From the NCBI GenBank assembly GCA_903893485.1, contig CAITMK010000012.1, positions 18,708-82,707 of the forward strand: 64,000 bases of DNA, in the 5' to 3' direction. A program made the translations under genes and the position numbers. Position 1 is the stretch's first letter; each line of letters starts with the position of its first letter. The notes under the pieces were generated by a model. It was not told where the DNA came from. It worked only from the letters and a program-made list of their open reading frames with translations, and searched no databases. The DNA is from Candidatus Magasanikiibacteriota bacterium. GTDB taxonomy: Bacteria > Patescibacteriota > Patescibacteriia > Magasanikbacterales > 2-02-FULL-50-9b. This document shows, one piece after another, positions 2,105-58,410 of the stretch.

Positions 2105-3640
2105 ATGAAAAAAGTTCTTTCAAAAATAATACTTCTAAGTATTTTAATAATGCCTGCGGCTGCGTATGCAGATACAACAGCTGCTAATCCTGGAATTGGG
2201 TATAATGATTTTACCCCAGCGGATAAGCAGGCGCTTACCACAGCATTACCAATGGCTGGTTTTGCTCAAAAAATGATAAGCCCTGCACAAGATGCAGCGC
2301 AGTTACGTGCATGGCATAATCCACAGATTTCAAATGGCCGCGTTGCAGTAGAGGAAACGGTTGTAAATGTTGTTGAAAGATCAAAACTGATTGATTCGAT
2401 TAAAGAAATGGTGCAGAAAGTTGCCGATCAATATCCAGATATGGCAGCCGCGACATCATCAAGTGAGATAGTTGCGGCACACCCAGAATTTGAATCTAAG
2501 TTTGCAGAAGTGTTGGCACACACATTTACGTTAGATGAATTGCAGCTTGAACAGGGAAGCGAAAAGATTCAAATTCATGTTTACAACTTACATAATCCAA
2601 AGGAAGAGTTTGTAATTCCAGCTCAAGATCATGAGTTACACTTGGGTATGATTAGGGCTCCGACGTGGTCACTCGGCCCAGCTGGATTAGCATGGATAGA
2701 TAATACCGTAAGTACCGATTCAAAAACGGTAACACAGAAAATTAATTATTTTGATTTTAAAACTAATAAGAATCGCATTCTTTTAACGCAACAGAATAAG
2801 AGTGATTCACGGATTAGTAATATCCAGGCTCAATATCAAACAATTGATCTGGCTTTTAACGGCGCAAAAGCTACAAGCGGAACCATTTTTGATCTTGTTC
2901 ACAATAAATCGATATTGGTAAATTTACCATTAAAACCAATTCAAGGCTTGTCTACAGAATCAGAATGGAATATCAAGTTATTGCGTGGTGTTATGAGTTT
3001 TGTCTCAGGCTCACATTATATTGCAAATATTGAAAAAATCGATAAAAATAGTTCGACCGTTCGACTGTTAAATATAACGACGGGTAAAACGAAAAAAATT
3101 ACAATTCCAGGCGCAATAAGTGCAGCACGTATTTATGGTGAAAATTTAGTTGCGACCGTATCCGATGGCCCAACCAATTTACTGACAAGTGTGTGGGAAT
3201 ATTCAATGCAAAAAAATAAAGCAAGAAAAATTTCTGTAACAGATCAGGGCGCAAAAATCACAGCACTTGAAGGTGATGAAATTATATTATTGCCAGCTAC
3301 TCGCACGGATAATTTTATTTTGCAGCTCATTGTAATGAATCGTTTGACAGGCAAAAACAAGGTGATGGCATATCCAAGTTCCACATATTCAATGTATAGT
3401 TATCGCGTTGAAACCGGTATTCAAAAAGCAACGGATGATTTGGCGAAACAATATGGCGTGGAAAATGTTTCGTTGAACGGTTATACAACAGGCGACTTTA
3501 TTGGTGTGCAAAAACCATCTTCAATTAAGACAAGTGATATTCAAGGTACATACTGGGCGCAACAGCTTGCAAGTCTTGAAAAAATGAAAATAGATTTGAT
3601 GAGTAGTATTTCAGCACTAACAATTTATTCAGCAAAATAA
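2105..3640 (+). CDS. hypothetical secreted protein (511 aa) with N-terminal signal peptide
   Basis: N-terminus MKKVLSKIILLSILIMPAAAYA looks like a Sec signal. No recognisable catalytic motifs. Preceded by TGaTATACTG at 2086-2095, 9 nt before the ATG. Confidence 0.6.
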   Translation: MKKVLSKIILLSILIMPAAAYADTTAANPGIGYNDFTPADKQALTTALPMAGFAQKMISPAQDAAQLRAWHNPQISNGRVAVEETVVNVVERSKLIDSIKEMVQKVADQYPDMAAATSSSEIVAAHPEFESKFAEVLAHTFTLDELQLEQGSEKIQIHVYNLHNPKEEFVIPAQDHELHLGMIRAPTWSLGPAGLAWIDNTVSTDSKTVTQKINYFDFKTNKNRILLTQQNKSDSRISNIQAQYQTIDLAFNGAKATSGTIFDLVHNKSILVNLPLKPIQGLSTESEWNIKLLRGVMSFVSGSHYIANIEKIDKNSSTVRLLNITTGKTKKITIPGAISAARIYGENLVATVSDGPTNLLTSVWEYSMQKNKARKISVTDQGAKITALEGDEIILLPATRTDNFILQLIVMNRLTGKNKVMAYPSSTYSMYSYRVETGIQKATDDLAKQYGVENVSLNGYTTGDFIGVQKPSSIKTSDIQGTYWAQQLASLEKMKIDLMSSISALTIYSAK

Positions 3641-4496: not shown

Positions 4497-4850
4497 TCAG
4501 GTGATGATCCGTTCGTTGGTGACCCAGTAGAGCACGCGCGCCCATTTGGACGACGCGTACATGAGGAAGAAACACAGCAACGCGATCGGCAGTTGCCAGA
4601 TCAAAGCGCAGCAGCCAACGGCCACGAGGAGCCAAATCGCCAACATGGCAAAGCCGTTGTTTTGCAGTTCGTGCATGATATTCCAGCCGCACATGATGCC
4701 GCCGAACAGCCCGACCGCTTTGCGCAGTTCCGGAATGTCGTCGACCGTCATGTGTTTGGTGGTCATCATGATCATGTACACAATCACGATGCCCGTAAGG
4801 CCAATAAATCCGTCCCGCAAAAAGCGGTCCACCTTCCGATACAATTGCAT
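4497..4850 (-). CDS. small integral membrane protein (118 aa, ~3 TM helices), GC-rich cassette A
   Basis: Start MQLYRK sits 5 nt behind a GGAGGAAGG Shine-Dalgarno. Hydrophobic stretches IGLTGIVIVYMIMM, AVGLFGGIMCGW and FAMLAIWLLVAVGCCALIWQLPIALLCFFL. Local GC is ~60% against a ~42% background. Confidence 0.55.
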   Translation of the reverse strand: MQLYRKVDRFLRDGFIGLTGIVIVYMIMMTTKHMTVDDIPELRKAVGLFGGIMCGWNIMHELQNNGFAMLAIWLLVAVGCCALIWQLPIALLCFFLMYASSKWARVLYWVTNERIIT

Positions 4851-6952: not shown

Positions 6953-7708
6953 ATGGATTTTGAACGGTCTCATCAAATTCGCCTTGCGCTCGAAGCTGCA
7001 TTTGTGGCAGCGCAAGGCAAACCTGTGGCAATGATCGTGGGTATCGGTGACGTCGGCAAGGGTGTTGCGGCAATGATTCGGCGCATGTCGCCCTTGCATC
7101 ATCTAGTCCTGGTGAACCGGGGCGCTCAGCGGCTTGCCGCGGTTCGTCTCGATCTGGATCTCAGCGACACGCCAGGCGGGCCAATCAGCACCATCGAGCT
7201 CGATCCGGGCAACCCGGCCGAACTTGATGTGCTCAAAGGCTGGCTGCAGCAGACGGTGAATCAAATTGATTTACTTGTATTGGCTGCGGGCTGCGCGGTG
7301 CCGGATGAGGGTAGCGAGCCAGCGTACGCGGCGAATCGCCCAAACTGGCAGCTCAAGACCAGCGTCATCGACGCGGTCGCGCAGTACGTCCACCACCTCG
7401 TTGTTGTGGGGTCCATGGTCACGCATTTGCCGGAGGCGGATGTACAGAGCCAGATCGGCTATCGCACGAGCATGCGGGAGCTTGAGACTCGCGTGAGTCA
7501 GCTGCAGGTTTGGATGCGTGGCGAGAATGTCAATCCATTCCTGGCTGAGCACGTGTTCGTCTGGCCGTGCCAGCTCGTCCAGGGCGCGACCGCCGAGAAG
7601 TACAAGGGTCTCGGTTTCGTGCATGAGAGTCAGGAAATTTGGACGCCTCAGGCGCATGCCGAGGCGACGCTCTGGCCTTTCATCCGTGGGTGGTGGCCGC
7701 TGCAGTAA
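6953..7708 (+). CDS. hypothetical NAD(P)-binding Rossmann-fold protein (SDR-like), GC-rich cassette B (251 aa)
   Basis: GGAGG Shine-Dalgarno 6 nt upstream of the ATG at 6953 (the ORF track starts at an in-frame GTG at 6926). Glycine-rich AMIVGIGDVGKGVA motif and an IDLLVLAAG (NNAG-like) segment. ~63% GC. Confidence 0.5.
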   Translation: MDFERSHQIRLALEAAFVAAQGKPVAMIVGIGDVGKGVAAMIRRMSPLHHLVLVNRGAQRLAAVRLDLDLSDTPGGPISTIELDPGNPAELDVLKGWLQQTVNQIDLLVLAAGCAVPDEGSEPAYAANRPNWQLKTSVIDAVAQYVHHLVVVGSMVTHLPEADVQSQIGYRTSMRELETRVSQLQVWMRGENVNPFLAEHVFVWPCQLVQGATAEKYKGLGFVHESQEIWTPQAHAEATLWPFIRGWWPLQ

Positions 7709-13394: not shown

Positions 13395-14552
13395 TTATTT
13401 GGGACGGGCTTCCGTTTGAGTACCAATGGGTAGAGATGGGGAGGTGATTATTTTTGGTACGTGATTTTGTGTATTTAAAAGAGCGGCATGCACAATTTGA
13501 TCAGAGGCAACATAAAAATTATAAATATTTTTGGGATAATCCGGATTAATTTTTTTCCATCTACTTCCATTGTAAAATGTTGAAAAATTTTCTAGGCTTT
13601 TTTCAGTAAAAGGAAAATCTAGGGCTGGATCATGCGATGATTCCATCGTCTTTTCATATAAATATGCCACAAATAGTTTTACCGCATTTTGTGGGTGATA
13701 CGTTTGTCCCTCGGTAAGTCCTAAATTGCGGCGAGCGCTGATTCCGGGACCTGTCATGAGCACATGAAATATTGAAAATGAGTATTCATGATGGCCGTCA
13801 TGACCCTCCCAGCGAAAGACTTCGCTCGAACCAAGTGGCGCACCACCAGCTTCTTGTTTCGCGATTGCTAAAAGTGAGCGAATAAATAACTCTGGTGACA
13901 TGCCAGGTTGTTCCAATATGTGAGCGATCATCGTTCCATACAATGGATCCGTTTGAAGTTCTGCAAGTGCCGCACTTGCGTAGATGCAAAAATCTTCATC
14001 AGTTATATAACGATCTTTGTTTTCGTGGGGGAGTGGTATCCAAGCGTCTTTTTCAGTTTTAATTAATTCACGCAACTCGGTATCCGGGATATTTATGGAA
14101 ATTGTTTTTGCAAGCTGCTTATTAAAATAGGCAAACTCAGGATATTTCGAAAATTTTTCAATAATTTTTGCTCGTGTATCGCCATGCACTGCATGATAAA
14201 ACAATAACCCCGTATCCTCAAAAATAATTTCACCATTAGGTAATTTCTTAGTTTGGTCAGCGCGCTCTGCCTCGGTGAAATCGCCATTTTTATGAAACAC
14301 AAAAAATGGTGATTCGTCTGGTGAAATTTTACGTAAATTAAATTTTATTTCGTCATTTTCATCTTTGGTTTCACTGACCATGTGTTTTGCACGCACATCT
14401 TCCTTACAGGAGCTTGCGCCCATGAGTATGACAGCTGCACCAAGTGCCGTTCCAATCTTTCCCAAAAGTGCGTTTTGCACGCGATCATATGGTGTATTTG
14501 TGTGCGTCGGTGCTTCTGGCAAACCAGTATGCAGAAATTTATTTTGCTCCAT
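13395..14552 (-). CDS. hypothetical lipoprotein/secreted protein (~385 aa)
   Basis: Hydrophobic N-terminal segment ending in ...ILMGASSCKED. Divergent from the pfkB gene. Confidence 0.5.
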   Translation of the reverse strand: MEQNKFLHTGLPEAPTHTNTPYDRVQNALLGKIGTALGAAVILMGASSCKEDVRAKHMVSETKDENDEIKFNLRKISPDESPFFVFHKNGDFTEAERADQTKKLPNGEIIFEDTGLLFYHAVHGDTRAKIIEKFSKYPEFAYFNKQLAKTISINIPDTELRELIKTEKDAWIPLPHENKDRYITDEDFCIYASAALAELQTDPLYGTMIAHILEQPGMSPELFIRSLLAIAKQEAGGAPLGSSEVFRWEGHDGHHEYSFSIFHVLMTGPGISARRNLGLTEGQTYHPQNAVKLFVAYLYEKTMESSHDPALDFPFTEKSLENFSTFYNGSRWKKINPDYPKNIYNFYVASDQIVHAALLNTQNHVPKIITSPSLPIGTQTEARPK

Positions 14553-14593
14553 ATGCATTAGTATACCCGATTTTCTGATATAATGTCTTCACT

Positions 14594-19835: not shown

Positions 19836-20471
19836 TTAACTGAGCTGGGCGAGTGTTGCAAGGGCAGCGACTGGGTTTGGCGTGTTAAAGATCGCGCCAT
19901 TTACGATAAACCGAGTGGCGCCAGCTGTTTTTGCAGCTGGAATCGTTGCAGCGCTGAGCGCGCCATCAACCGTAATCGCTAATGTTGGGGTTGCAGTGCG
20001 GCATTCAGCAATTTTTTCGAGCACCGATTGCTCAAATGGACGTCCACTGGCGCCTGGATGCACGGTTAAAAACAAAATGTCATCAACATAGGGTAATAGA
20101 TGCGCGACGTCTGCTAGCGGCGTTTCTGGAGCCACCGCAATGCCAGCTTGCCACCCGTGAAATTTTATTGCCTCGATAACTTTTTTTGGGTCTTCAACAG
20201 GTTCAACATGAAAATAAACCATTTTGACCGCGGTTGTTTCGGTCCAGGCGTCTAAATGCTGCAATGGATTCGCGACCATTAAGTGCAGCTCAAAATGCGC
20301 AGGGGAAAGCATTTGGCCAATGAGTCCTGGATCCGCCCATGATTTTTCTGGCTGCCAGGTTCCATCTAAAACATCGATTTGAATGCGGGGCGCCTCGGCC
20401 TCAATGGTGCGCAATCGCGACTCAAATTCTGCCGCAGAATGTACAAGGATCGCAGGAATAATTTGTGTCAT
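19836..20471 (-). CDS. rpe: ribulose-phosphate 3-epimerase
   Basis: PAIL...DVLDG...HLMV motifs of Rpe; 211 aa. Confidence 0.8.
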   Translation of the reverse strand: MTQIIPAILVHSAAEFESRLRTIEAEAPRIQIDVLDGTWQPEKSWADPGLIGQMLSPAHFELHLMVANPLQHLDAWTETTAVKMVYFHVEPVEDPKKVIEAIKFHGWQAGIAVAPETPLADVAHLLPYVDDILFLTVHPGASGRPFEQSVLEKIAECRTATPTLAITVDGALSAATIPAAKTAGATRFIVNGAIFNTPNPVAALATLAQLS

Positions 20472-20908
20472 ACTTCGAGCTTTGCAACCATTTCTAGGCG
20501 GCGAATATGGCGTTCGTCATTGGAAAATTCAGTGTCTAAAAATTTGCGCACAATTGCACGCGCAAAATCAGGTTGCAAAACGCTGCCCGCAAGGCAAAGC
20601 ACGTTTGCGTTGTCATCGGTGCGCATGGTTTCGGCAGCAAGCAGGTTGTAGCCAATGCCCGCGCGGATCCCCGGATGTTTATTTGCAGCCATGCAAACAC
20701 CAACGCCGTTGGCACACAGCAAAACGCCACGGTTTGCAGGATCTGCAAGCACTTTGCGGCTTAGTTTTTCTGTTACCACTGGGTAATCGTCCCCGGGAAC
20801 CATTGGTCCAGCGCTTAAATCCTCAAAAGGAATTTCCTGAAGTTTTAAAAATTCTTTGATGGCTTCTTTGAGTTCAAAACCCGCGTGATCCGCGCCAAGA
20901 TAAAGCAT
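20468..20908 (-). CDS. rpiB: ribose-5-phosphate isomerase B
   Basis: LGADHAGFELK...CANGVGVCMAANK is the RpiB/LacAB signature. First gene of the minus-strand pentose-phosphate operon; TGcTATAAT extended -10 upstream. Confidence 0.85.
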   Translation of the reverse strand: MLYLGADHAGFELKEAIKEFLKLQEIPFEDLSAGPMVPGDDYPVVTEKLSRKVLADPANRGVLLCANGVGVCMAANKHPGIRAGIGYNLLAAETMRTDDNANVLCLAGSVLQPDFARAIVRKFLDTEFSNDERHIRRLEMVAKLEV

Positions 20909-20952
20909 ATTTTATAATTTATTGAGAAATTATAGCACAGGTGGGGCGGGTC

Positions 20953-20982
20953 TTGACAAAAAAGCCCAGATATGATTAAATA
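20953..20982 (+). promoter_or_regulatory. sigma70-like promoter gggtcTTGACAAAAaagccc ... TTAAAT for GC-rich cassette C
   Basis: Consensus -35 flanked by the gggc/gccc inverted repeat; the -10 match is weaker. Confidence 0.4.
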
Positions 20983-21093
20983 TTGAGGCTAGAGTGTTAT
21001 TTTAGGAGTAAGGCACACGGGCCCCAATCCAATTGTCCAGCAACCAGCGGTATTCCCCTCGATGGGTAACCCGCTTCAGCAAGGAGGTCAGTC

Positions 21094-21204
21094 ATGATCC
21101 AGTCCACCGCCAGCCCCGCGCGCAACCATGCGGGTGAGTTATCCTTCAAGCCATCGCTGCTGCAGTCCATCAACGGCCGCGCCGGGCGCCGCGCCAAGAA
21201 GTAG
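21094..21204 (+). CDS. hypothetical 36-aa peptide in GC-rich cassette C (MIQSTASPARNHAGELSFKPSLLQSINGRAGRRAKK)
   Basis: Perfect AAGGAGG Shine-Dalgarno 6 nt upstream of the ATG. ~68% GC island ending in a terminator at 21337-21373. The region could instead be a structured RNA. Confidence 0.35.
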   Translation: MIQSTASPARNHAGELSFKPSLLQSINGRAGRRAKK

Positions 21205-21336
21205 CCACGGCGACGCCGGCGGCTACTGACGCGCGGCGCCGACGAAGGAGATTCGCTTCTCCAACGCCGGCGCCTCGCAACCGCTGAAATCACCGTTTTC
21301 TTGCCGGCCAACGCCGACACGAGCACGAGTTTCGGC

Positions 21337-21373
21337 GCCACCAACCCACAGGGGCTCTGGTGGTCTTTTTTTA
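21337..21373 (+). terminator. terminator closing cassette C
   Basis: ccacc...ggtgg hairpin followed by T7. Confidence 0.45.
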
Positions 21374-21411
21374 TTTGCACGCAAATGCGATTTCCGCTAG
21401 GATACATAGAT

Positions 21412-22836
21412 ATGAAGAATCCACCAAAAAATCTACCATCAGCCGTTGTAATTACGCCTGTTTTTAAAAATCAAAAAAATTCGCCAAGCTTGCCGCACGC
21501 AACCGAAGCCGGCGAAACTATTTTTGCGGTTATCGAAGGGCAGCCAACGATTTTTGTGGGCCTTGGTGAGGAAAAAGAAATTACATTGCTTGGTGTTGCT
21601 ACGACATTTGCCACGGCAATTCGTTTGGCCGAAGACAAAAAATATATAAATGTTGTTGCAAATATTCCAGCGCAGCTTTTTAAAATTGCTGATGGAAAAA
21701 AAGTTGGTGAAACAATGTCGCGCCTTGCGGATATTGCAATTTATCGGTTCCACGATTACCACACCAACAAAGATCGTCATACAAACCCAATTGTTGATTT
21801 ACTTTGGCAGGGAATTCCAGTGCCGCAGCAAAAAGATTTTGCCATTGGCATGAGTACGGGCTCGGCGATCGCGCGTGCAACAAATTTTGCGCGCGATTTG
21901 GGAAATCATCCGCCTTCCTACATGAACCCAGAACAGCTTGCGAGGGAAGTTGAAGAGTTAGGCAAGCATATTCCAAAACTCGCCGTTACGGTTTTGCGTA
22001 AAAAAGAAATTGAAAAAGAAAAAATGGGTGGGTTACTTGGCGTTTCGTCCGGTAGCGCGCAGCCACCAACATTTATCATTATGGAATATGCTGGCGGCAA
22101 AAAGGGGGCGGCGCCAATTGCCTTGATGGGCAAGGGTGTTACGTTCGATGCTGGCGGTATTTCAATTAAACCATCCAGCAAAATGGATGAAATGAAATTC
22201 GATATGATGGGCGGCGCAACTGTTGTGGGCGCGGTTTTGGCCGCAGCTAAATTACAGCTGCCGATAAATGTAGTGGGGCTTATTCCTGCAACCGAAAATT
22301 TGCCATCTGGCACGGCAATGCGCCCGGGTGATATTTTGCACATGCATTCTGGTAAAACGGTTGAGGTTTTGGACACCGACGCGGAAGGCCGTTTGATTTT
22401 AGCAGACGCGTTGTCTTATGCGCGTCGATTTAAACCAGCCGCTGCAATTGACTTGGCAACGTTAACGGGTGCTTGTGTGGTGGCGCTCGGTGAATCTTAT
22501 GCGGGTCTCTGGTCAACCGACGAAAAATTAACGCGCCGCATCTCGGCCGCATCAGAACAAGTTGGTGAAAAAGTATGGCCAATGCCTTTGGGCGAAGATT
22601 TTTCATGCCAAATCAAATCAGAAGTTGCAGATATCAAAAATTTAACAGATCGCTGGGGCAGCGCAAATACCGCCGCGGCATTTTTGCAAGAATTTGCACC
22701 AACTAAAAATTGGGCACATTTGGATATCGCGGGTGTTGCCTATTCCGATCGCCTAAAGCCAGTGCGCACCAAGGGCGCAACAGGTTGGGGCGTTGCGCTG
22801 CTCGTGGACATGCTGCGCGGATTCAAGGTACAATAA
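21412..22836 (+). CDS. pepA: leucyl aminopeptidase (M17 family)
   Basis: VLDTDAEGRLILADAL matches the M17 NTDAEGRL motif, and the catalytic region KGVTFDAGGISIKP is present. Confidence 0.85.
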   Translation: MKNPPKNLPSAVVITPVFKNQKNSPSLPHATEAGETIFAVIEGQPTIFVGLGEEKEITLLGVATTFATAIRLAEDKKYINVVANIPAQLFKIADGKKVGETMSRLADIAIYRFHDYHTNKDRHTNPIVDLLWQGIPVPQQKDFAIGMSTGSAIARATNFARDLGNHPPSYMNPEQLAREVEELGKHIPKLAVTVLRKKEIEKEKMGGLLGVSSGSAQPPTFIIMEYAGGKKGAAPIALMGKGVTFDAGGISIKPSSKMDEMKFDMMGGATVVGAVLAAAKLQLPINVVGLIPATENLPSGTAMRPGDILHMHSGKTVEVLDTDAEGRLILADALSYARRFKPAAAIDLATLTGACVVALGESYAGLWSTDEKLTRRISAASEQVGEKVWPMPLGEDFSCQIKSEVADIKNLTDRWGSANTAAAFLQEFAPTKNWAHLDIAGVAYSDRLKPVRTKGATGWGVALLVDMLRGFKVQ

Positions 22837-33813: not shown

Positions 33814-34254
33814 CCACATTGACAAAACCCATTTTTTCTGGTGTAATGCGCGGGCTACGAAACCAGGACGAGTGCCCTACGGGGAGGAAAGTCCGGACAC
33901 CCTTTGCGGGGCAACCCGCATCGTCGTGGTGCTGGCTAACGGCCAGGCATTCTGCGGGGTATAAACGACGCGTCGCAAGACGCCCGCGAAAACCTTCTGA
34001 CGGAAAGTGCCACAGAGACAATTAAAGTTTTGACCTCGGTCAATTCCAAAGGTGAAAAGTGAGGTGGTGTACGGGCGCAAGCTCATGCTACACCTCTTTG
34101 CCCGGGCGCGAGTCCGTGGCAGTGGCAAACCCCACCTGGTGCAAGTGCGTATGCACGCATCGAGCGACGTAGTAATACGGCGCCAAGACAGATACTCGTC
34201 ACCGCGCGCCTCAAAACGCACGGGACAAAATCCGGCTTATATGGTTTTGTAGTG
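33814..34254 (+). ncRNA. rnpB: RNase P RNA (bacterial type A-like)
   Basis: Universally conserved P4 segments GGGAGGAAAGTCCGGAC (33883-33899) and ACAAAATCCGGCTTAT near the 3' end. 5'/3' termini can pair as P1 (ccacattgacaaaacccat / atggttttgtagtg). TGtATACC box upstream. Confidence 0.8.
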
Positions 34255-34282
34255 AAATCCGCCTTCGGGCGGATTTTGATTT
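34255..34282 (+). terminator. terminator after rnpB (aaatccgcc-ttcg-ggcggatttt)
   Basis: Perfect 8-bp stem with tetraloop and T-run. Confidence 0.75.
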
Positions 34283-34379
34283 TCCATAAAATAAAAAAAT
34301 CGCCGAGACGATTCCCGCGTGAGTCAAGCTCTCGCGAAAACCGTCCCGGACGATGGCGTGGTTGCACGCCTTGTGCGCG

Positions 34380-34832
34380 TCAGCGGTCGATGACTTGCTT
34401 CCAGCCCGGGTGCGAATTCGCCGCCGCGTCTTGGATGCTGTTGTCAGAGGCACTGTCGTGTGCCGGACCGTTGGTCTTGTTCACGATGATTTGCGGCGTA
34501 TCCGGCGGCGGGCCCTGGTTGGCCGTCAGCGCATGGTTGTTGCTCACGGGGTTGTTGACGGCGATGTGCACGCCGAGGTCGTCGCGCAGCAGCCGCGCCT
34601 TGTGGATGAACTGCGCTTCCGTCGCGCCGTCCGTGGTGATGCACGCCAGGCTTTCCGCCAGCTTCCCGCCGTGGTCCAGGTTGACCAACGCAATCGGGAT
34701 GTCGGCGACGACGCCAAGCTCCTTGTCCGAAGACGGCGGCGACTGGGCGAGCGGCGCGGCAATGGCCGTCATGGCGAGCAGGGCGCTCGTCGCGATGGTC
34801 ATCTGCAAGAAACGAATGAGCTTGTGGCCCAT
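34380..34832 (-). CDS. hypothetical secreted protein (150 aa), GC-rich cassette D
   Basis: GGAGGT Shine-Dalgarno 5 nt before the ATG. Signal peptide MGHKLIRFLQMTIATSALLAMTAIAAPLAQ. ~62% GC. Overlapping plus-strand ORFs look like GC-driven artefacts. Confidence 0.5.
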   Translation of the reverse strand: MGHKLIRFLQMTIATSALLAMTAIAAPLAQSPPSSDKELGVVADIPIALVNLDHGGKLAESLACITTDGATEAQFIHKARLLRDDLGVHIAVNNPVSNNHALTANQGPPPDTPQIIVNKTNGPAHDSASDNSIQDAAANSHPGWKQVIDR

Positions 34833-34970
34833 GGGTACCTCCAGGAAAGTTGTCACTGAGTACTCCTTAAACCGCAAAGGGCCGGGTTAAGGTTGCGGCA
34901 ACGCACCGCATGAAAGACAATATATCAGTCTGCGGGGTAGTCGTCAAGTATGTTATACTGTGGAATATTT

Positions 34971-35477
34971 ATGAAGGAGCTCTTTGACAAAAATAATCCA
35001 AGCACACTTGTGAGCGAAAATTTTTCGTGGGATGAATTCGAAGCCCGGCATGTTGATTCTGTTCGGCCGCCTGTAAAACTTTCAAAACACGAGCTTGCCG
35101 ATCTTGAAGCGCAATCCGAGAGCTTAGAAACTGAAGAAGCAAAATTAGTTGCTCAAATTAAGGATCCACATTTTGTGCAAAACATGGTGGAACGTGAAAT
35201 TGAATCAGCCACCAAAGAAATTGCAGTCGTGGTCGCTGAAATGGAAAAAATAAAAAAGCAGCAATCAATTTTAGGACGTTTATTAAAACGTGATTTGCCA
35301 CCAGAATATGAACGCCTCGAGGAACATTTTTTTCATTTGCAAAGTAAACTTATTTTGCTAGATGGCAAACGATTACACCCCGATGTGGTGCATGTGGGAA
35401 CCATGCGCGCACTTAAATCGGTACGCGAAAAAATCGCACGTATTGCGCTGCTCAAAAAAGAAATCGAACACTTTTAG
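34971..35477 (+). CDS. hypothetical coiled-coil protein (168 aa)
   Basis: TGtTATACTG box 10 nt upstream of the ATG, so likely leaderless. Confidence 0.5.
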   Translation: MKELFDKNNPSTLVSENFSWDEFEARHVDSVRPPVKLSKHELADLEAQSESLETEEAKLVAQIKDPHFVQNMVEREIESATKEIAVVVAEMEKIKKQQSILGRLLKRDLPPEYERLEEHFFHLQSKLILLDGKRLHPDVVHVGTMRALKSVREKIARIALLKKEIEHF

Positions 35478-36430
35478 ATAAGTCCCAATGCGCCGCGAAC
35501 CTCGGACATTGTTTTTTGTGCGCGAGCACTTGCAGCGGCGCGGCCCATTTCCAAAACTTCGGTAATGCGCGCGTCGGTAATTTCTTCGCGGCGAGCGCGA
35601 AAATCTGCAAAATAATTTGCAATCAAATCAGCGAGCGTATCTTTCAGATCTACATTTTTTAACGTGCCGGCTGCAAATTCTGCAGACAATTTTTGGTGCG
35701 TACCATTGGCATCAAAAAGTTGTGCGAGTCCTAACAAATTTTGTACGCCAACTTCGTCGGTCACGGCTTTGCGCATTTTATCGTGAATCGAATCTGAGTC
35801 GTCGGTCAAATAAATACATGATTTGTCGCCATGTGATTTTGACATTTTTTTTGTTGGTTCAGCGAGCGACATAACGCGTGGCGTTTGGGTGAGCAGCGCT
35901 TGTGGTTCGGGGAAGAGTACACTAAATTTATTGTTAAACTTTTTTGCAATCACGCGTGCAAGTTCCACATGCTGCACCTGATCTTCGCCAACAGGAATTT
36001 GATGTGGTTTGTATAATAAAATATCCGCGGCCATGAGCACTGGATATGTGTACAAGCCGGCGTTAATATTTTCTGCGTGGCGCGCTGCCTTATCTTTAAA
36101 TTGCGTCATTTTATCGAGCTCGGCCAGGGGAGTCAGCGTTAAGAAAATCCAACAAAGTTCGGAATGTTCTGGCACATGCGACTGCACAAATAAATTTGAT
36201 TTTGTAGGATCAATGCCAAGCGCCAAAAGATCGCGTACCAAATTGCGAACCATTTTTTGTTTTTGTGCCGGGTCAAAATCAACCGTAAGCGAATGCAAAT
36301 CTGGAATAAAATAAAAACGTTCAAGGCCTGGATCGGCTTGCATGTCCACCCAATTTTTAACCGCGCCCAAATAATTACCAATATGCATGCTGCCGGTTGG
36401 CTGGATTCCAGAAATGATGACGTTTTTCAT
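35474..36430 (-). CDS. trpS: tryptophan--tRNA ligase
   Basis: GIQPTGSMHIGNY HIGH motif and KMSKS motif. The ORF-track 620-aa reading is an upstream extension antisense to cassette E. Confidence 0.85.
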   Translation of the reverse strand: MKNVIISGIQPTGSMHIGNYLGAVKNWVDMQADPGLERFYFIPDLHSLTVDFDPAQKQKMVRNLVRDLLALGIDPTKSNLFVQSHVPEHSELCWIFLTLTPLAELDKMTQFKDKAARHAENINAGLYTYPVLMAADILLYKPHQIPVGEDQVQHVELARVIAKKFNNKFSVLFPEPQALLTQTPRVMSLAEPTKKMSKSHGDKSCIYLTDDSDSIHDKMRKAVTDEVGVQNLLGLAQLFDANGTHQKLSAEFAAGTLKNVDLKDTLADLIANYFADFRARREEITDARITEVLEMGRAAASARAQKTMSEVRGALGLI

Positions 36431-36461
36431 AGTAGGAGGATTATAGCGGATGCGGCGGATC

Positions 36462-36490
36462 TTGACAAAACCGCTAAAACATGGTATGCT
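36462..36490 (+). promoter_or_regulatory. strong sigma70-like promoter gatcTTGACAAAA-17-TGgTATGCT for cassette E
   Basis: Consensus -35, 17-nt spacer, extended -10, followed by a ~95-nt leader with a hairpin. Confidence 0.55.
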
Positions 36491-36583
36491 GCTCGGTCTA
36501 GTTGAAAAGGGCTTTCCTAGCGGAAAGATTAGGCTTGTGGCAGATAAGTATTTGCTGCAAAACCCTCGTGATCGGAGGACAAG

Positions 36584-37291
36584 ATGAATGAGAAAAACTC
36601 GGAAAAGCGGTACGTTGTCGCGGCTTTGTTGCGGCAGGTTTTGGGCCTCGGGCCGAATGACCTGACGGCAAAAATGCTGCTGGCGACGGCCATGACGCAG
36701 ACGCAAGCCGCAGTGTTCGCCGAGGCGGTGCATCCGAATTTCCCGCGTTGGGCTGGCCGCTCGACCCGCGATTTCGCGGACTCGTGTGGTCCGGACGCGC
36801 ATTTCAAGGGCGAGACGGACCTGATGAAGGTCCTGGTCTCGGAGGACCTGAATAAGGCCATGCTGATCGACATCGGCTGGCGGCTGGGCACGGTGATCGT
36901 TCCGATGCCGGGCAAGCGCGAGCGGGAGAGCCTGCACGACCTGTTCAAGCACTTCATGGTCACGGACGAAGAGCTCGATCGGCCGAACATCGCTGCGATG
37001 GCGGCGGCTGGTGCTCAGGTTCCCCGCGATCGTGCGACTCCGCCGGCGCCGACCAAGGCGAGCCAAGTGGCACGCGCCAATCAGGCGGTCGTGCGCAAGG
37101 ACATTCTCGCGGGCAAGCACATGCCGTCGGGCGATGCTGGCTTTGGCGGTGCGTCCAACGAGCCGCGCGGCGATCATCGCGGTCGGCGTGCGCGTCTCGA
37201 AGAAGAGCAGCGCATGCGTCAGCGCGGCAAGCCGGCTGAAGGCACGGGCAAGCACTCGGCGAAGCGCAAGCAGGGCGGCGGTCGCGGTTAG
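36584..37291 (+). CDS. hypothetical protein (235 aa) with basic disordered C-terminal tail, GC-rich cassette E
   Basis: GGAGGA Shine-Dalgarno 5 nt upstream. ~66% GC. C-terminal ~70 aa are Arg/Lys/Gly-rich. Confidence 0.5.
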   Translation: MNEKNSEKRYVVAALLRQVLGLGPNDLTAKMLLATAMTQTQAAVFAEAVHPNFPRWAGRSTRDFADSCGPDAHFKGETDLMKVLVSEDLNKAMLIDIGWRLGTVIVPMPGKRERESLHDLFKHFMVTDEELDRPNIAAMAAAGAQVPRDRATPPAPTKASQVARANQAVVRKDILAGKHMPSGDAGFGGASNEPRGDHRGRRARLEEEQRMRQRGKPAEGTGKHSAKRKQGGGRG

Positions 37292-37312
37292 CGCAAACGT
37301 GCGCGGCCAATC

Positions 37313-37378
37313 GGCGTACAACATAGAGACTCGCACAGAAATTTCGTGCTTGAGACTCTGGTTGTACGCTGTTTTTTA
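37313..37378 (+). terminator. long-hairpin intrinsic terminator after cassette E
   Basis: gtacaacatagagactc...gagactctggttgtac stem followed by gctgtttttt. Confidence 0.6.
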
Positions 37379-37439: not shown

Positions 37440-38249
37440 ATGAAACAAGCTCAGATTAGGGATGATTTGCAACAAGCGTATTTGGAAACAATTGTGCTGG
37501 CACAACTGCTCGATGAAGGGTTTATTGGGCCGGCGAACTTGCTTCTTCGAGTTTTTGGTGCGTGCAAGGTGCCGCACAAAAACGCGTGGAGTGGTACGTT
37601 CGGAAATTCGCAGCTCTTTCAATTTGGTACAAATGGCCGTGCCCTGCGTTTGACCTTTACCACTACAATAACTGAAGCCAGTCTGATTCTGGACTGGACT
37701 TCAGATTATCAGGCGACAGAGCAGGACGTGGACCTGTGGTCACAGCGCGTGGAGCTCGGTTACGTCAGGTCTCGTGGTAAGTGGTTTTTTGAGACGAACC
37801 TCTCTGCCGACGGCTTTGGGGAATGGTTCGGTCGTCATGGTTCGCGCCTTCCAATTCCGGATTGGCATCACGACGATCCCATGCCCTGGCTTGCAATCAA
37901 CGCGGTCACACGTGGTTTCTTGCCCAAGAGGCCGGAAAGATTTGCACGCGCAATGGTCATGATTTTTTTGGAGGGAAATCAGACTGCGGATCGGTATCAA
38001 GCTGATCCGCTTACGGTGAGCGAGGCTACTGTTCTGAAGTCCATCGCGCATGCAGTCATGAATGGTAATCGGTGGATGGTTGTTCGGACGCGCGCCGGCA
38101 GACGTCTGGATTCGCAAGACGCACGGGATGCCCTTGATGTAATTATGGGGATCAAACCGCCTTTGGAGTGCTCCAGAGATTTGCTCGAATTCGTCAAGAT
38201 GATCTGTGGCGCTGCTGGCGACGCAAGCTTCGGCGGCCGCATTGTTTGA
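37440..38249 (+). CDS. hypothetical protein (270 aa), cassette F, tandem with E
   Basis: TTGACT-17-TAGGAT promoter at ~37380-37410. GGAGGA Shine-Dalgarno 5 nt before the ATG at 37440. ~53% GC. No recognisable motifs. Confidence 0.5.
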   Translation: MKQAQIRDDLQQAYLETIVLAQLLDEGFIGPANLLLRVFGACKVPHKNAWSGTFGNSQLFQFGTNGRALRLTFTTTITEASLILDWTSDYQATEQDVDLWSQRVELGYVRSRGKWFFETNLSADGFGEWFGRHGSRLPIPDWHHDDPMPWLAINAVTRGFLPKRPERFARAMVMIFLEGNQTADRYQADPLTVSEATVLKSIAHAVMNGNRWMVVRTRAGRRLDSQDARDALDVIMGIKPPLECSRDLLEFVKMICGAAGDASFGGRIV

Positions 38250-51820: not shown

Positions 51821-54193
51821 CTAAAATTTATACATTGAAATCTTAGCCACATTAATAAGTCCTTTCATAAAGTCTGACTTATACTGCTGAAGCGTTTTAA
51901 TTGCGCGCGCAATTTCAAGTGGATCATTTTTTTGAACAGGCGCTTCGGTCATAGTTACTTTGTCATCTTTCACTTTGGTAACAATTTGATTTCCCGCAAC
52001 GCCGATGTAAGTCGAAGACTTGAAATCAATTGCGTATTGCAATGGATCGCCGCCAGCAAGCGGAAGAATTACTAAAGAATCTGGTTGACTAATCTTAAAG
52101 ACTAAACGGGCACCATCAAATGAAAGCAGCTCTCGCTCAGAATGCTTTTGAAGAATTGGCGGTAATGGAATTTCAGTGGTTACGAAATTTTTTAGGTCAA
52201 CTTGTGCATAGGTATTGCCATCACTCATGACTGCGGTATCCCCATATAGTTTAATTGTTCTGATCTGTCCGTAAAAAGGGTACCCCAGTTCTTTGCCCGT
52301 ATTCATGTCGAGCACATGCAGCGCCGGTGCGTTTGTGGTGGTATCAAAAAGTGCCCACGCAATATAATGAGAACCGCCCACCACTGTTGTCAGCATTTGA
52401 TTTTCTCCTACATTATCCGATTGTAGCTGCTTAACGAGCTTACCGGTTTTTGTATTCCAAGCGCTATATGCCGTAATGCCACTTTTTGAATGAGTTTCTA
52501 ATATTAATGATTGATATTCGGCATGCACGGTAAAGCTTAAAAGATCTGCCATGTTGGCTGCGGTGATTTTTTGTACGACCGTATCTTTTTTTGTGGCAAA
52601 ATCGTACCAATGTACCTCGCCGGTTGTTATTTTTTTAGCGGTTACCACACGAAACCATGCGAGGCCGGTTGGACCAACACTCCAAGGTTTCGTGGAATTA
52701 AGTTGCGGCATCCCGATTGTTGGAATTGTAAAATTCTTACCGGTACTTATTTTATGTACAATGATTGATTGAGTGGAAGTTACTCCGCCAAAGGCATTCG
52801 CTATGAGCGCGCCACCTGCACTAGCGACTGTCCCCATTAGTTTATTAAAAACATCGGGATGGGTTTTCAAGTAATCATTTGCGGCCGCTTGAGTTTTAAT
52901 ACTTTTTGGAACCGTTGCACTAAGTTTTTGTAAGCCGCTGGTAAGCGTATTAAAAAACTTTGTAGTATCTTTTGCCGAGACCAGTGGTACGTTTGCAGCG
53001 ATCACATCATTGGCTACATCAAAATCCCCGTACTCTGCGATTGTCCCTTTGGGACCTGGTGGAACAGTCCACAATGAAACAGGTAAACTTGAAGCCCCGG
53101 GAATATCGCTGGTCTGCTGAAGTTTTTGTAGCGTCGCATCATCAATGCTGTTGTCACATTGAATCGTTTTGTATCGAAGGCCATTTGAGTCTGCCCAATA
53201 GATATATGGACCGGTTAGAACCGCATGACTTGCATTTTCAATGCCATCAGCCTTAGTAAAATTTGTAGGACAAGACATCTGCGTTGACTCGTTGAAGAAA
53301 TTATATACAGAACCTTGTTTCCATAGCAGGCCAGAATCACCTGAAAGAAAATATGAAGCTTTCGCGTCATTAATTACAACAGGAGCAATGGTTTTGGTAT
53401 CCATGGCGACTCGGTAATAACCATTATTCAAGTACAATGGATTTTCGACGTAGAATGATGACTTATCTGCCATGGATAAGAATTTTAAAACACCCTCTGT
53501 CTGTATGAATGCCGTATAATCAATTGTGGTCGCTGCGGTATCGACAAATCGGCGAAATACGATTGTGTGATTATTTATATCGCTCGCTGCGATATAATCA
53601 GGCCCGATAACAAAATTTGTATTGCCCGCTTGATCTACCACGTCAACATCAGGATCTTGTAGAAAATCAGCAACACTTTGCGTCTTATTTTGCGCAACAT
53701 CAAGGACTTCATACGTTTGGGTGTCCGTACTATAGACTGCAAACTTTCCATCTACGGATGCAGCAACCTCACCCAAAAGAGTATCTGATGATTTTGCGAT
53801 AAGTTGCGAGACTTTTTTACTTGTAAAATCGTATTGATATATGCCGGATGTTGCATCTTTGCTTCCCCAAATGACGGTGTTGTTTGTAATCGCTGCGTTT
53901 GAGAGCTCGTATAGCGGATCTGAAATTGGCGCAAAACTACCGGTGCCTACATCGGTCATCATGAGTTGGCCATCTGGATGAGTTGAAACAAATGGGGATT
54001 GGCCGCTAGGACTTGTGAACCAAACAACATGTGAACCAAATGCAGCCCAATCGTTTGCAGGGTCCTGTTGAAATCCACTTTGCGTTCCGTAGCCAGCAAC
54101 CGGAGTTGCAGTAGTTGCGGCAATTGCGGATGCCGTTGGCAATAATAATGAAATAACGGTGAAGAGCGAAACGAAAGAGCTTTTTTTAAACAT
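51821..54193 (-). CDS. hypothetical large secreted protein (790 aa)
   Basis: Signal peptide MFKKSSFVSLFTVISLLLPTASAIAA. Repetitive beta-rich composition. Confidence 0.5.
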   Translation of the reverse strand: MFKKSSFVSLFTVISLLLPTASAIAATTATPVAGYGTQSGFQQDPANDWAAFGSHVVWFTSPSGQSPFVSTHPDGQLMMTDVGTGSFAPISDPLYELSNAAITNNTVIWGSKDATSGIYQYDFTSKKVSQLIAKSSDTLLGEVAASVDGKFAVYSTDTQTYEVLDVAQNKTQSVADFLQDPDVDVVDQAGNTNFVIGPDYIAASDINNHTIVFRRFVDTAATTIDYTAFIQTEGVLKFLSMADKSSFYVENPLYLNNGYYRVAMDTKTIAPVVINDAKASYFLSGDSGLLWKQGSVYNFFNESTQMSCPTNFTKADGIENASHAVLTGPYIYWADSNGLRYKTIQCDNSIDDATLQKLQQTSDIPGASSLPVSLWTVPPGPKGTIAEYGDFDVANDVIAANVPLVSAKDTTKFFNTLTSGLQKLSATVPKSIKTQAAANDYLKTHPDVFNKLMGTVASAGGALIANAFGGVTSTQSIIVHKISTGKNFTIPTIGMPQLNSTKPWSVGPTGLAWFRVVTAKKITTGEVHWYDFATKKDTVVQKITAANMADLLSFTVHAEYQSLILETHSKSGITAYSAWNTKTGKLVKQLQSDNVGENQMLTTVVGGSHYIAWALFDTTTNAPALHVLDMNTGKELGYPFYGQIRTIKLYGDTAVMSDGNTYAQVDLKNFVTTEIPLPPILQKHSERELLSFDGARLVFKISQPDSLVILPLAGGDPLQYAIDFKSSTYIGVAGNQIVTKVKDDKVTMTEAPVQKNDPLEIARAIKTLQQYKSDFMKGLINVAKISMYKF

Positions 54194-55076: not shown

Positions 55077-55700
55077 TTAGGGGTTTGGCACTTCCGGCCG
55101 GCCCAAAATAATGTCTGAGTGTGCCCAATCGATGCGCCAGCCGCGTAGATAAACAGCTCCGAGAATTCGTTGCAGAATTTCCTTTGCTCGTTGATCTTTT
55201 GGATGTCTGAGCGAAGTAATCCGAATCACGAAATGTTCGCGCCGCGATGGTTTGCTTAGGGTCTCTACGGTAATTTGGGCGCAACCGATCTTTGCCCACT
55301 GAGGTTGGAGTTCTGGGGCGGCGTAACGGACGCTCACCGGTATGCGGTTAGCCACAGCCTCGACATCGGCAAGACTTGGCATAGGGAAACGCGTCGTATC
55401 GGCCTGTGCAAAATGGTACACGTCGGTGTTTACTTTTTTGAGGATGGCAATTTCTACCGGGACTGATCCTGGAAGAAGGATGATTTCGTCAGAGAAGTCT
55501 TGTGACTCAACATCGCTTGGCAGGCCAACCTCGACACACTTTGCAAAGCCGGCCCTAATAAATGGAGCCTGCAGGTGCGGCGGAATTGCCGAGAGCAACT
55601 TTGAGTTGTCGCCTGGTGCGCATGGTTCGCGCGTTGCAAAAAATTGCTTTAAAGGCACCTCGCTTGAAGCGGGCACCACGAAATAGGTACGCCAGTTCAT
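55077..55700 (-). CDS. hypothetical protein (207 aa), GC-elevated cassette G
   Basis: AGGAGGTG Shine-Dalgarno 5 nt before the ATG, with TAACGT immediately after the cca stop. ~54% GC. No recognisable motifs. Confidence 0.45.
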   Translation of the reverse strand: MNWRTYFVVPASSEVPLKQFFATREPCAPGDNSKLLSAIPPHLQAPFIRAGFAKCVEVGLPSDVESQDFSDEIILLPGSVPVEIAILKKVNTDVYHFAQADTTRFPMPSLADVEAVANRIPVSVRYAAPELQPQWAKIGCAQITVETLSKPSRREHFVIRITSLRHPKDQRAKEILQRILGAVYLRGWRIDWAHSDIILGRPEVPNP

Positions 55701-58336: not shown

Positions 58337-58410
58337 GGGCCAGTAGCTCAGTTGGTGAGAGCACGGTGCTTATAACGCCGGGGTCCTGGGTTCGAGTCCC
58401 AGCTGGCCTA
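58337..58410 (+). tRNA. tRNA-Ile (anticodon UAU)
   Basis: Acceptor GGGCCAG/CTGGCCT (G1·U72), D-arm GCTCAGTTGGTGAGAGC, anticodon stem CGGTG/CGCCG with loop CTTATAA, T-arm CTGGGTTCGAGTCCCAG. CCA not encoded. Confidence 0.7.

Follow-up and report, generated by a model that had tools for sequence, protein, structure and literature searches.

A GC-rich islet between rpiB and pepA in a Magasanikbacteria genome, tentatively read as an accessory gene cassette with a 36-codon Shine-Dalgarno-led frame

A GC-rich islet upstream of pepA

The 64,000-nucleotide stretch of contig CAITMK010000012.1 analysed here (the window), from an uncultured Candidatus Magasanikiibacteriota bacterium, contains between the genes rpiB and pepA an islet of approximately 380 nt that is rich in guanine and cytosine (GC) and carries its features on the + strand, in a window with 46% GC. 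On one side rpiB (20468-20908, - strand; PF02502) heads an rpiB-rpe-trxB-like-tkt operon, and on the other lies pepA (ATG at 21412, + strand; PF00883), and these Pfam assignments bear out the position between the rpiB operon promoter and pepA that had been given in an earlier note made from the sequence alone. The same note described a 68%-GC islet, a figure that holds for the core (0.65-0.68 GC in 21015-21365) and not for the full span of 20940-21375, which has 0.60; the highest value, 0.76, is found in 21176-21278. The peak GC content of the islet over 150 nt (0.71) lies ~4 standard deviations above the window mean (0.46, standard deviation 0.063), and is equalled at only two other sites in the window (34355-34864 and 36825-37373).

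Seven further contigs of the same population (L088 and L092-L097), recovered from several samples and with several assemblers, match the islet exactly and are identical over 20400-22000, with a single PepA mismatch in L088 that lies outside this identical stretch, and the islet is therefore not an assembly artefact. The lack of single-nucleotide polymorphisms among these contigs also means that they hold no variation for analysis of covariation or of the ratio of nonsynonymous to synonymous substitutions (dN/dS). The best named relatives of the window PepA belong to Candidatus Magasanikbacteria (candidate phyla radiation, CPR/Parcubacteria), and the closest non-self PepA is ~60% identical (at most 62%).

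The sole boundary repeat seen around the islet is an 11-nt inverted repeat that brackets it (20958-20968/21361-21371; AAAAAAGCCCA/TGGTCTTTTTT, 91% complementary), which is of low complexity and probably fortuitous. An origin as a miniature inverted-repeat transposable element or other insertion was rejected, the flanks having only this low-complexity repeat and no target duplication.

Promoter, leader and Shine-Dalgarno sequence

Reading of the sequence places a putative -35 box TTGACA, followed by AAAAA, at 20953-20958 (+ strand; full box TTGACAAAA) and, 17 nt past it, an extended -10-like element TGaTTAAAT at 20973-20981, the latter also by analogy with the promoter of the RNase P RNA gene. 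This class A RNase P RNA (33856-34255, + strand; 125 bits; GC 0.62-0.64) is preceded by ATTGACAAAA-17-TGTAAT and served throughout as the in-genome control for promoter spacing, codon and structure statistics. Measured against sigma-70 promoters, the islet has a perfect -35, a 17-nt spacer and a TGn extension, together with a -10 hexamer, TTAAAT, that departs from the consensus A at position 2. The TTGACAAAA box is also present upstream of the RNase P RNA (33819) and of a 235-aa GC-rich gene (36462), and all three promoters share a TG-extended, imperfect -10, that of the RNase P RNA being TGTAAT. Since the 5' end of the RNase P RNA falls 37 nt past the start of its -35, the islet transcript would by analogy start near 20990 (~20988-20991). 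The islet -35 overlaps TTGTCA, the -35-like element of the divergent rpiB promoter (TGCTATAAT, 20929-37, - strand), and the box is kept beside rpiB in two related loci, L081 and L083. While the promoter motif of the earlier note (TTGACA at 20953-58) was found as described, the gggc/gccc inverted repeat said to flank it did not stand, having arms of 4 nt that the repeat finder did not report and that are not conserved in relatives.

The predicted 5' untranslated region of ~104 nt (20990-21093; GC 0.53) is not significantly structured, and when folded together with the first 17 nt of the open reading frame (ORF) that follows (20990-21110) it has a minimum free energy (MFE) of -28.6 kcal/mol and a z-score of -0.14. 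Near its end is a Shine-Dalgarno (SD) sequence AAGGAGG (21081-21087), 6 nt ahead of an ATG at 21094, as had been claimed. Counting both strands, the 64 kb contain just four copies of AGGAGG, two of which have an ATG exactly 6 nt further on, one belonging to the islet ORF and the other to a 207-aa gene.

The 36-codon ORF

The ORF that begins at this ATG (ORF36; 21094-21204, + strand; stop TAG at 21202-04) has 36 codons and encodes exactly the 36-aa translation quoted earlier (MIQSTASPARNHAGELSFKPSLLQSINGRAGRRAKK). Its GC contents at codon positions 1, 2 and 3 are 0.54, 0.54 and 0.89, with G or C at the third position (GC3) in 32 of 36 codons (binomial p=0.002); the GC3 of the GC-rich genes of the window is 0.78-0.86. 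A codon log-odds model was built from seven GC-rich SD-led ORFs, of which the window supplied three and relatives four. On leaving one out, it separated true frames, which with a single exception scored +0.26 to +0.42 bits per codon, from the other frames. ORF36 scored +0.29 bits per codon, and its total of 10.4 bits equals the mean of true 36-codon segments, while being reached by 4.8% of wrong-frame segments and 0.2% of dinucleotide shuffles. Its frame is the best of the six and scores above every 36-codon segment of the RNase P RNA in any frame. The proposal of an SD-led ORF on a + strand transcription unit is thus supported to the extent that ORF36 appears gene-like by its SD spacing, open frame, GC3 and codon scores, all within only 36 codons. 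The ORF body is also unstructured (21094-21175; MFE -15.4 kcal/mol, z=+0.75), and the modelled absence of structure in leader and ORF body would fit the need for an accessible ribosome-binding site.

The predicted peptide is hydrophilic (grand average of hydropathy, GRAVY, -0.71) and strongly basic (charge ~+5.6, isoelectric point ~12), with no Cys and no hydrophobic stretch, and this composition speaks against the toxin-like peptide suggested before. A type I toxin, which would be a short, hydrophobic and membrane-spanning peptide, usually with an overlapping antisense RNA, was rejected in particular, as the peptide has no such hydrophobic stretch and no - strand promoter was evident from the promoter scan or from reading of the sequence. 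The further suggestion of a precursor of a ribosomally synthesized and post-translationally modified peptide (RiPP) did not hold either; no recognisable modification enzyme is present among the called genes within ~4 kb, which are rpiB, rpe, a thioredoxin-reductase-like gene (trxB-like) and transketolase on one side and pepA, two small ORFs without a Pfam match, ruvA and a femAB-like gene on the other. The RiPP candidate was also set aside on the absence of Cys and on the nature of PepA, a general aminopeptidase of family M17, the gene of which is in synteny in relatives without the islet. Predicted tryptic peptides of ORF36 include MIQSTASPAR and NHAGELSFKPSLLQSINGR, and the islet offers a concrete, well-delimited candidate for peptide and transcript detection.

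The ORF36 frame is also the frame of pepA, and the frame-coincident stretch (21094-22836, + strand) is broken only by the TAG at 21202. Recoding of this TAG, or read-through into pepA, was rejected, as TAA (28), TGA (10) and TAG (9) all serve as ordinary stop codons and PepA homologues begin at the MKNPP-equivalent codon. A mechanical 'pepA' ORF of 511 aa starts at TTG 21301; the alignment of relatives backs the 474-aa start at 21412.

The only long ORF in the islet lies on the other strand (136 aa; 20997-21407, - strand), and we consider it barely credible that this is the real gene. Gene calling returned it once, in a Logan contig, and positive codon scores are obtained in its frame at the two ends of the islet. 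As its third codon positions are also those of the ORF36 frame, GC3 periodicity agrees with it just as well and cannot alone pick the strand. Over the ORF36 region, however, its codon score is 2.6 bits against 10.4, and it scores below the + strand path described below. The antisense ORF has no SD sequence or recognisable promoter, gene callers report it in one assembly out of several, and it starts inside the pepA promoter and start region, from where it would read through the terminator hairpin and an A7 run. Base-composition arithmetic gives an open frame of this length a chance of ~8% per frame at 65-70% GC. Its predicted product (P0123) is rich in Arg, Ser and Pro, forms a singleton cluster in the protein collection, and is without relatives in a JGI metagenome scan or the protein collection and without a match in Pfam or PHROGs. 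The view that this ORF is a compositional artefact is in agreement with these results.

The structured 3' tail and its terminator

RNA structure prediction, which had been proposed as a check, returned a strongly structured GC-rich 3' part that ends in an intrinsic terminator. After the ORF36 body, ~165 nt form a very stable predicted structure, and the whole 3' 200 nt (21175-21375) fold with an MFE of -100.1 kcal/mol (z=-4.8). The first module is a Y-shaped domain (21176-21278, + strand; GC 0.76; MFE -61.9 kcal/mol, z=-4.0), underlain by inverted repeats I1 and I4 of the repeat finder and composed of an outer stem, a hairpin A (GGCGCCGCGC/GCGCGGCGCC plus GUAGCC/GGCUAC) that encloses the ORF36 stop codon, and a small hairpin B (GGAGA/UCUCC). 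The second GAAGGAG, said to lack an ATG, is indeed present at 21244-50, where it forms the 5' arm of hairpin B and has no ATG, GTG or TTG in reach. The Y-shaped domain is followed by a long irregular hairpin (21279-21337, + strand; MFE -22.9 kcal/mol, z=-3.2, 61% of the ensemble), the sequence of which, from 21282, is also coding-like in the ORF36 frame. The third module is the intrinsic terminator (21337-21372, + strand), with a 7-bp stem GCCACCA/UGGUGGU (21337-43/21358-64), an inner 3-bp stem CCC/GGG and then U7 at 21366-72, in line with the hairpin and T7 terminator described before; the fold of 21330-21375 has -15.0 kcal/mol (z=-2.4). The terminator scan, limited to loops of 8 nt, did not detect it on account of its longer loop. 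It would function on the + strand only, because on the - strand the A-run lies ahead of the hairpin.

Past this terminator, and outside the islet unit, pepA has its own putative promoter (TTGCAC-17-TAGGAT; 21375-21414, + strand, including a near-leaderless ATG), which lies ~9 nt before the ATG and aligns with the related loci L081, L083 and L086, where the same layout is kept. This arrangement speaks against a cis-acting leader for pepA, a cis-acting RNA having been one of the options raised, and bears on the possibility that the islet is a leader-peptide attenuator, in which ribosomes translating ORF36 as far as hairpin A would rearrange the downstream hairpins and modulate termination at the T7 run, and with it read-through into pepA. 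The short ORF, the alternative GC-rich hairpins, the terminator and the co-oriented downstream gene do resemble the trp, his and pheST attenuators. The ORF36 stop and its last 8 codons lie within the stems of the Y-domain, the segment 21231-40 can pair with either 21185-94 or 21269-78, and the terminator is 40 nt ahead of pepA in the same orientation. We nevertheless give this possibility very little credence; the conserved pepA promoter is found with different upstream genes in L081, L083 and L086, the peptide has no run of regulatory codons, the MFE structure includes hairpins A and B at the same time, and no such leader is present in the relatives. No antiterminator or other competitor for the 5' arm of the terminator was noticed on reading the region, in which no systematic search for one was made.

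Searches for relatives of the islet

No Rfam family was matched in the islet at gathering thresholds, and at E<=10 the region 20850-21450 gave only sub-threshold chance matches (eukaryotic miRNA, snoRNA and lncRNA models, and the bacterial sRNA Bcj14), the best scoring 22 bits against a gathering score of 80. ARAGORN found three tRNAs in the window and no transfer-messenger RNA (tmRNA). Pfam and PHROGs gave nothing for the ORF36 peptide, the antisense ORF or the ORFs found at this position in relatives. BLASTn against phages and plasmids returned only a 43-nt chance match to a Halobellus plasmid, and against the rest of the window it aligned the islet with nothing but the shared promoter box at 36451-70, revealing no further copy. 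Neither the antisense 136-aa frame nor the + frame retrieved a relative in scans of JGI metagenomes, and scans of IMG/VR viral sequences were negative both for the islet and for the 235-aa ORFan. A phmmer search of the peptide against 1.84 billion representatives gave a single match, P0121, an artefact in which a eukaryote-like tandem-repeat protein aligned at 'NGRAGERKRK'; the exact ORF36 peptide is absent from the 15-billion protein collection. A concatenated six-frame query against the 5.8-billion collection also returned nothing, and was discounted because it failed to return P0123, known to be in that collection, so that negatives from such composite low-complexity queries are untrustworthy. 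Scanning for contigs of genomes with the PepA pattern MDEMKFDM gave in effect only Proteobacteria and no close relative, the pattern being universal in M17 peptidases.

Coding-like statistics of the 3' tail

Frame-switching Viterbi scoring of the + strand gave 13.9 against -4.6±5.8 for shuffles, of which 0.2% reach the observed score, and the 3' tail alone scored 8.8 (reached by 0.4% of shuffles). The - strand is weaker, with 8.1 against 13.9, and its scores are reached by 3.8% of shuffles for the whole and 9.8% for the tail. In the RNase P RNA control the Viterbi codon score was not significant. The path runs in the ORF36 frame, enters the +1 frame at ~21199 and returns to the ORF36 frame at ~21284. 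A tail that is coding-like in shifted frames would have the appearance of a decayed longer ORF, and its codon statistics make the GC-rich tail resemble former coding sequence more closely than an RNA selected for its structure.

Two readings that assign the tail an RNA function have to be set against this result. In the first, ORF36 would be a bona fide small-protein gene, or part of a dual-function RNA, with the 36-aa peptide as the intended product and the 3' half a selected RNA module acting as a stabiliser or as a base-pairing or protein-binding domain. The likeness to microprotein genes and dual-function small RNAs (sRNAs) such as SgrS/SgrT, RNAIII/hld and SR1/SR1P lies in the short transcript unit with its own promoter and intrinsic terminator, and in an SD-led ORF of fewer than 50 codons joined to a structured non-coding part. 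An unstructured 5' half with the SD-led ORF is followed here by three discrete and very stable modules, all expression signals are intact, and structured RNA is GC-rich in this genome, as seen in the RNase P RNA. Streamlined genomes usually purge dead DNA, which also counts in favour of this reading. The islet differs, however, in having no sequence or family relationship to these systems and in a structured part that resembles former coding sequence. The tail is coding-like in shifted frames, unlike the RNase P RNA control, no Rfam match exists even at E<=10, searches yielded neither a second copy nor a relative that would show conservation, and no target complementarity was identified. On balance we regard this reading as unlikely, though not remote.

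The second is a purely non-coding structured sRNA of ~380 nt, in which the SD sequence, ATG and ORF would be fortuitous or would serve for ribosome loading only. The islet is a compositional one like that of the RNase P RNA, its folding is strong (z=-4.8), and gene callers left it uncalled in most assemblies. This reading is rendered improbable by the AAGGAGG-6 nt-ATG arrangement, which is very rare in the genome and elsewhere marks real genes, and by the GC3 periodicity and codon score of ORF36, at the level of true genes and above all RNase P RNA segments. The first 185 nt at the 5' side are moreover not structured, and no RNA family is matched.

The rpiB-pepA slot in related genomes

The position occupied by the islet carries different ORFs in relatives. 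In L081 and L083 the conserved bidirectional promoter by rpiB is followed by + strand ORFs of 87 and 75 aa, respectively, and in L086 a 108-aa membrane-like + strand ORF lies upstream of pepA; these three have GC contents of 0.61-0.67, an SD sequence with ATG, and a + strand terminator of their own. L089 and L090 instead have a conserved SD-led gene pair upstream of pepA (3172-3423 and 3599-3949 in L089; 1497-1763 and ~1944-2290 in L090), encoding a zinc-ribbon protein of 83 or 88 aa (CxxC...CxxC, 60% identical between the two loci) and a protein of 115 or 116 aa. This pair may be toxin-antitoxin-like, in which case the slot would host accessory modules. The ORFs of the relatives are unrelated to the islet, and among themselves share only the zinc-ribbon ORF of L089 and L090. 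Across these five loci, the SD-led sites that fall at called gene starts are those of the small accessory ORFs preceding pepA, and the remaining motif matches lie inside core genes. As judged from these sequences, the slot is a variable accessory position, and ORF36 appears to fit the local type.

The islet as a possible accessory gene cassette

Taking these results together, we tentatively favour a reading of the islet as an accessory gene cassette, self-contained and specific to its lineage, that lies on the + strand and whose frame of 36 codons is probably the 5' part of a longer ORF that has been truncated. A sigma-70-type promoter, back-to-back with the rpiB promoter, would start an mRNA near 20990, and its unstructured 104-nt leader would expose the canonical AAGGAGG, from which ribosomes would make a 36-residue, strongly basic and hydrophilic peptide. 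The remaining ~165 nt would fold into the Y-domain holding the stop codon, the long hairpin and the intrinsic terminator, so that the transcript would end ~40 nt before pepA with its own promoter. The former ORF would have had ~80-110 codons, the tail being coding-like only across a stop and frame shifts. The analysis shows the sequence signals, the composition, the codon statistics, the predicted folding and the lack of relatives, and from there transcription, translation, truncation and any function of the peptide are inferred. In the same reading the islet would be one of a set of GC-rich SD-led genes, mostly family-less, that are scattered in an otherwise SD-less genome. It has in common with the GC-rich SD-led genes of the window and the slot ORFs of L081, L083 and L086 a GC content of 0.60-0.67, high GC3, an ATG led by GGAGG or GAGG, TTGAC(A/G)-type promoters and terminators of their own. 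It shows no sequence similarity to any of them, and whereas the ORFs of the other genes fill their tracts and stop 25-80 nt before the terminator, that of the islet occupies one third, with a gap of 134 nt.

Several observations weigh against a truncated gene cassette on the + strand. Even the best 'ancestral' path contains a stop, the TGA at 21227, and no intact longer ancestral ORF could be rebuilt, frame 1 running without a stop before pepA. The - strand folds nearly as well as the + strand (z=-3.8 vs -4.8), and folding gives no choice of strand because the structure comes from inverted repeats at the DNA level. The 3' structure is well defined, the MFE structures accounting for 8-61% of the ensemble, which would also be expected of a functional RNA. 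At the promoter, position 2 of the hexamer TTAAAT is not the usual A, a consensus promoter scan called no site at the islet, and conservation of the -35 across genera could stem from the rpiB promoter on the other strand. The codon model was trained on only ~1,000 codons, and the collections searched gave no homologue in which selection on the peptide could show.

The islet is also comparable to ORFans and 'moron'-like single-gene insertions, which it resembles in its deviant composition, its own promoter, SD sequence and terminator, its variable slot and the absence of detected homologues. It deviates towards high GC, and neither a donor nor a mobility gene was identified, nor any repeat boundary beyond the low-complexity 11-nt repeat. 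Foreign DNA in bacteria is more often AT-rich.

SD-led GC-rich genes and SD-less core genes in the window

All seven sites in the window with GGAGG, a spacing of 5 or 6 nt, an ATG and an ORF of at least 30 aa, the islet included, are GC-elevated (0.53-0.67 vs 0.46). They are the sole canonical SD-led ORFs in the window, and none of the six others reaches a Pfam gathering score. The clearest are the 235-aa gene mentioned above (36584-37291, + strand), which matches only itself among 5.8 billion proteins, a 150-aa gene (34380-34832, - strand) with a signal-peptide-like N-terminus, and a 251-aa gene (6953-7708, + strand) with weak, sub-threshold Rossmann-type matches (E=0.0035); three further GGAGG-led genes are located at 37440-38249 (+ strand), 55077-55700 (- strand) and 4497-4850 (- strand). 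Some 40 core genes, by contrast, lack an SD sequence, and many have a -10-like box (tatact, tataat or taggat) 5-10 nt before the ATG, examples being those at ATG 2105, 13395-14558 (- strand), 14594, 51821-54193 (- strand) and 21412. This arrangement suggests that the core genes mostly have leaderless or short-leader mRNAs.

Three of the four clearest GC-rich cassettes lie back-to-back with the start of a core gene, namely the islet with rpiB, the 150-aa gene with a gene at 34950, and the 235-aa gene with trpS. The compact bidirectional promoter regions between them (20929-20981, 34878-34950 and 36440-36490) have a common TTGAC(A/G)-17-TGnTAnnnT layout. It is a more speculative suggestion, and in our view a doubtful one, that the islet is a visible member of a distinct class of Magasanikbacteria genes, consisting of GC-rich, SD-led and mostly family-less cassettes beside core-gene promoters. 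The host genomes of such a class would have SD-less or leaderless core genes, and the slot by rpiB would be a recurrent hot spot with unrelated cargo in each genus. These cassettes could be captured foreign DNA whose donors have a high GC content, or could have arisen de novo as genes through divergent promoter activity, and the islet would then be a cassette caught in decay or in birth.

On its own, the islet is a small-ORF unit without conservation, from a CPR bacterium that has not been cultured, and a local curiosity on which little hinges. Of greater interest is the contrast of SD-led, GC-rich accessory genes with core genes that lack an SD sequence. If general, it bears on how genes are acquired or invented in ultra-small genomes, on the use of two modes of translation initiation in one cell, and on gene-calling errors in CPR metagenome-assembled genomes, in which an islet such as this one is left empty or called on the wrong strand.

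The mechanical ORF of trpS (35474-37336, - strand; 620 aa) extends ~300 codons upstream of the real start (~36440, MKNVIISGIQPTG...). This over-extension is open as the antisense shadow of the GC-rich 235-aa gene, and is a likely source of mis-annotation.

Bacteria commonly read AUA with a lysidine-modified tRNA-Ile(CAU), and a tRNA-Ile(UAU) is uncommon among them. The window contains a tRNA-Ile with the anticodon UAU (TAT in the gene) at 58337-58410 (+ strand).

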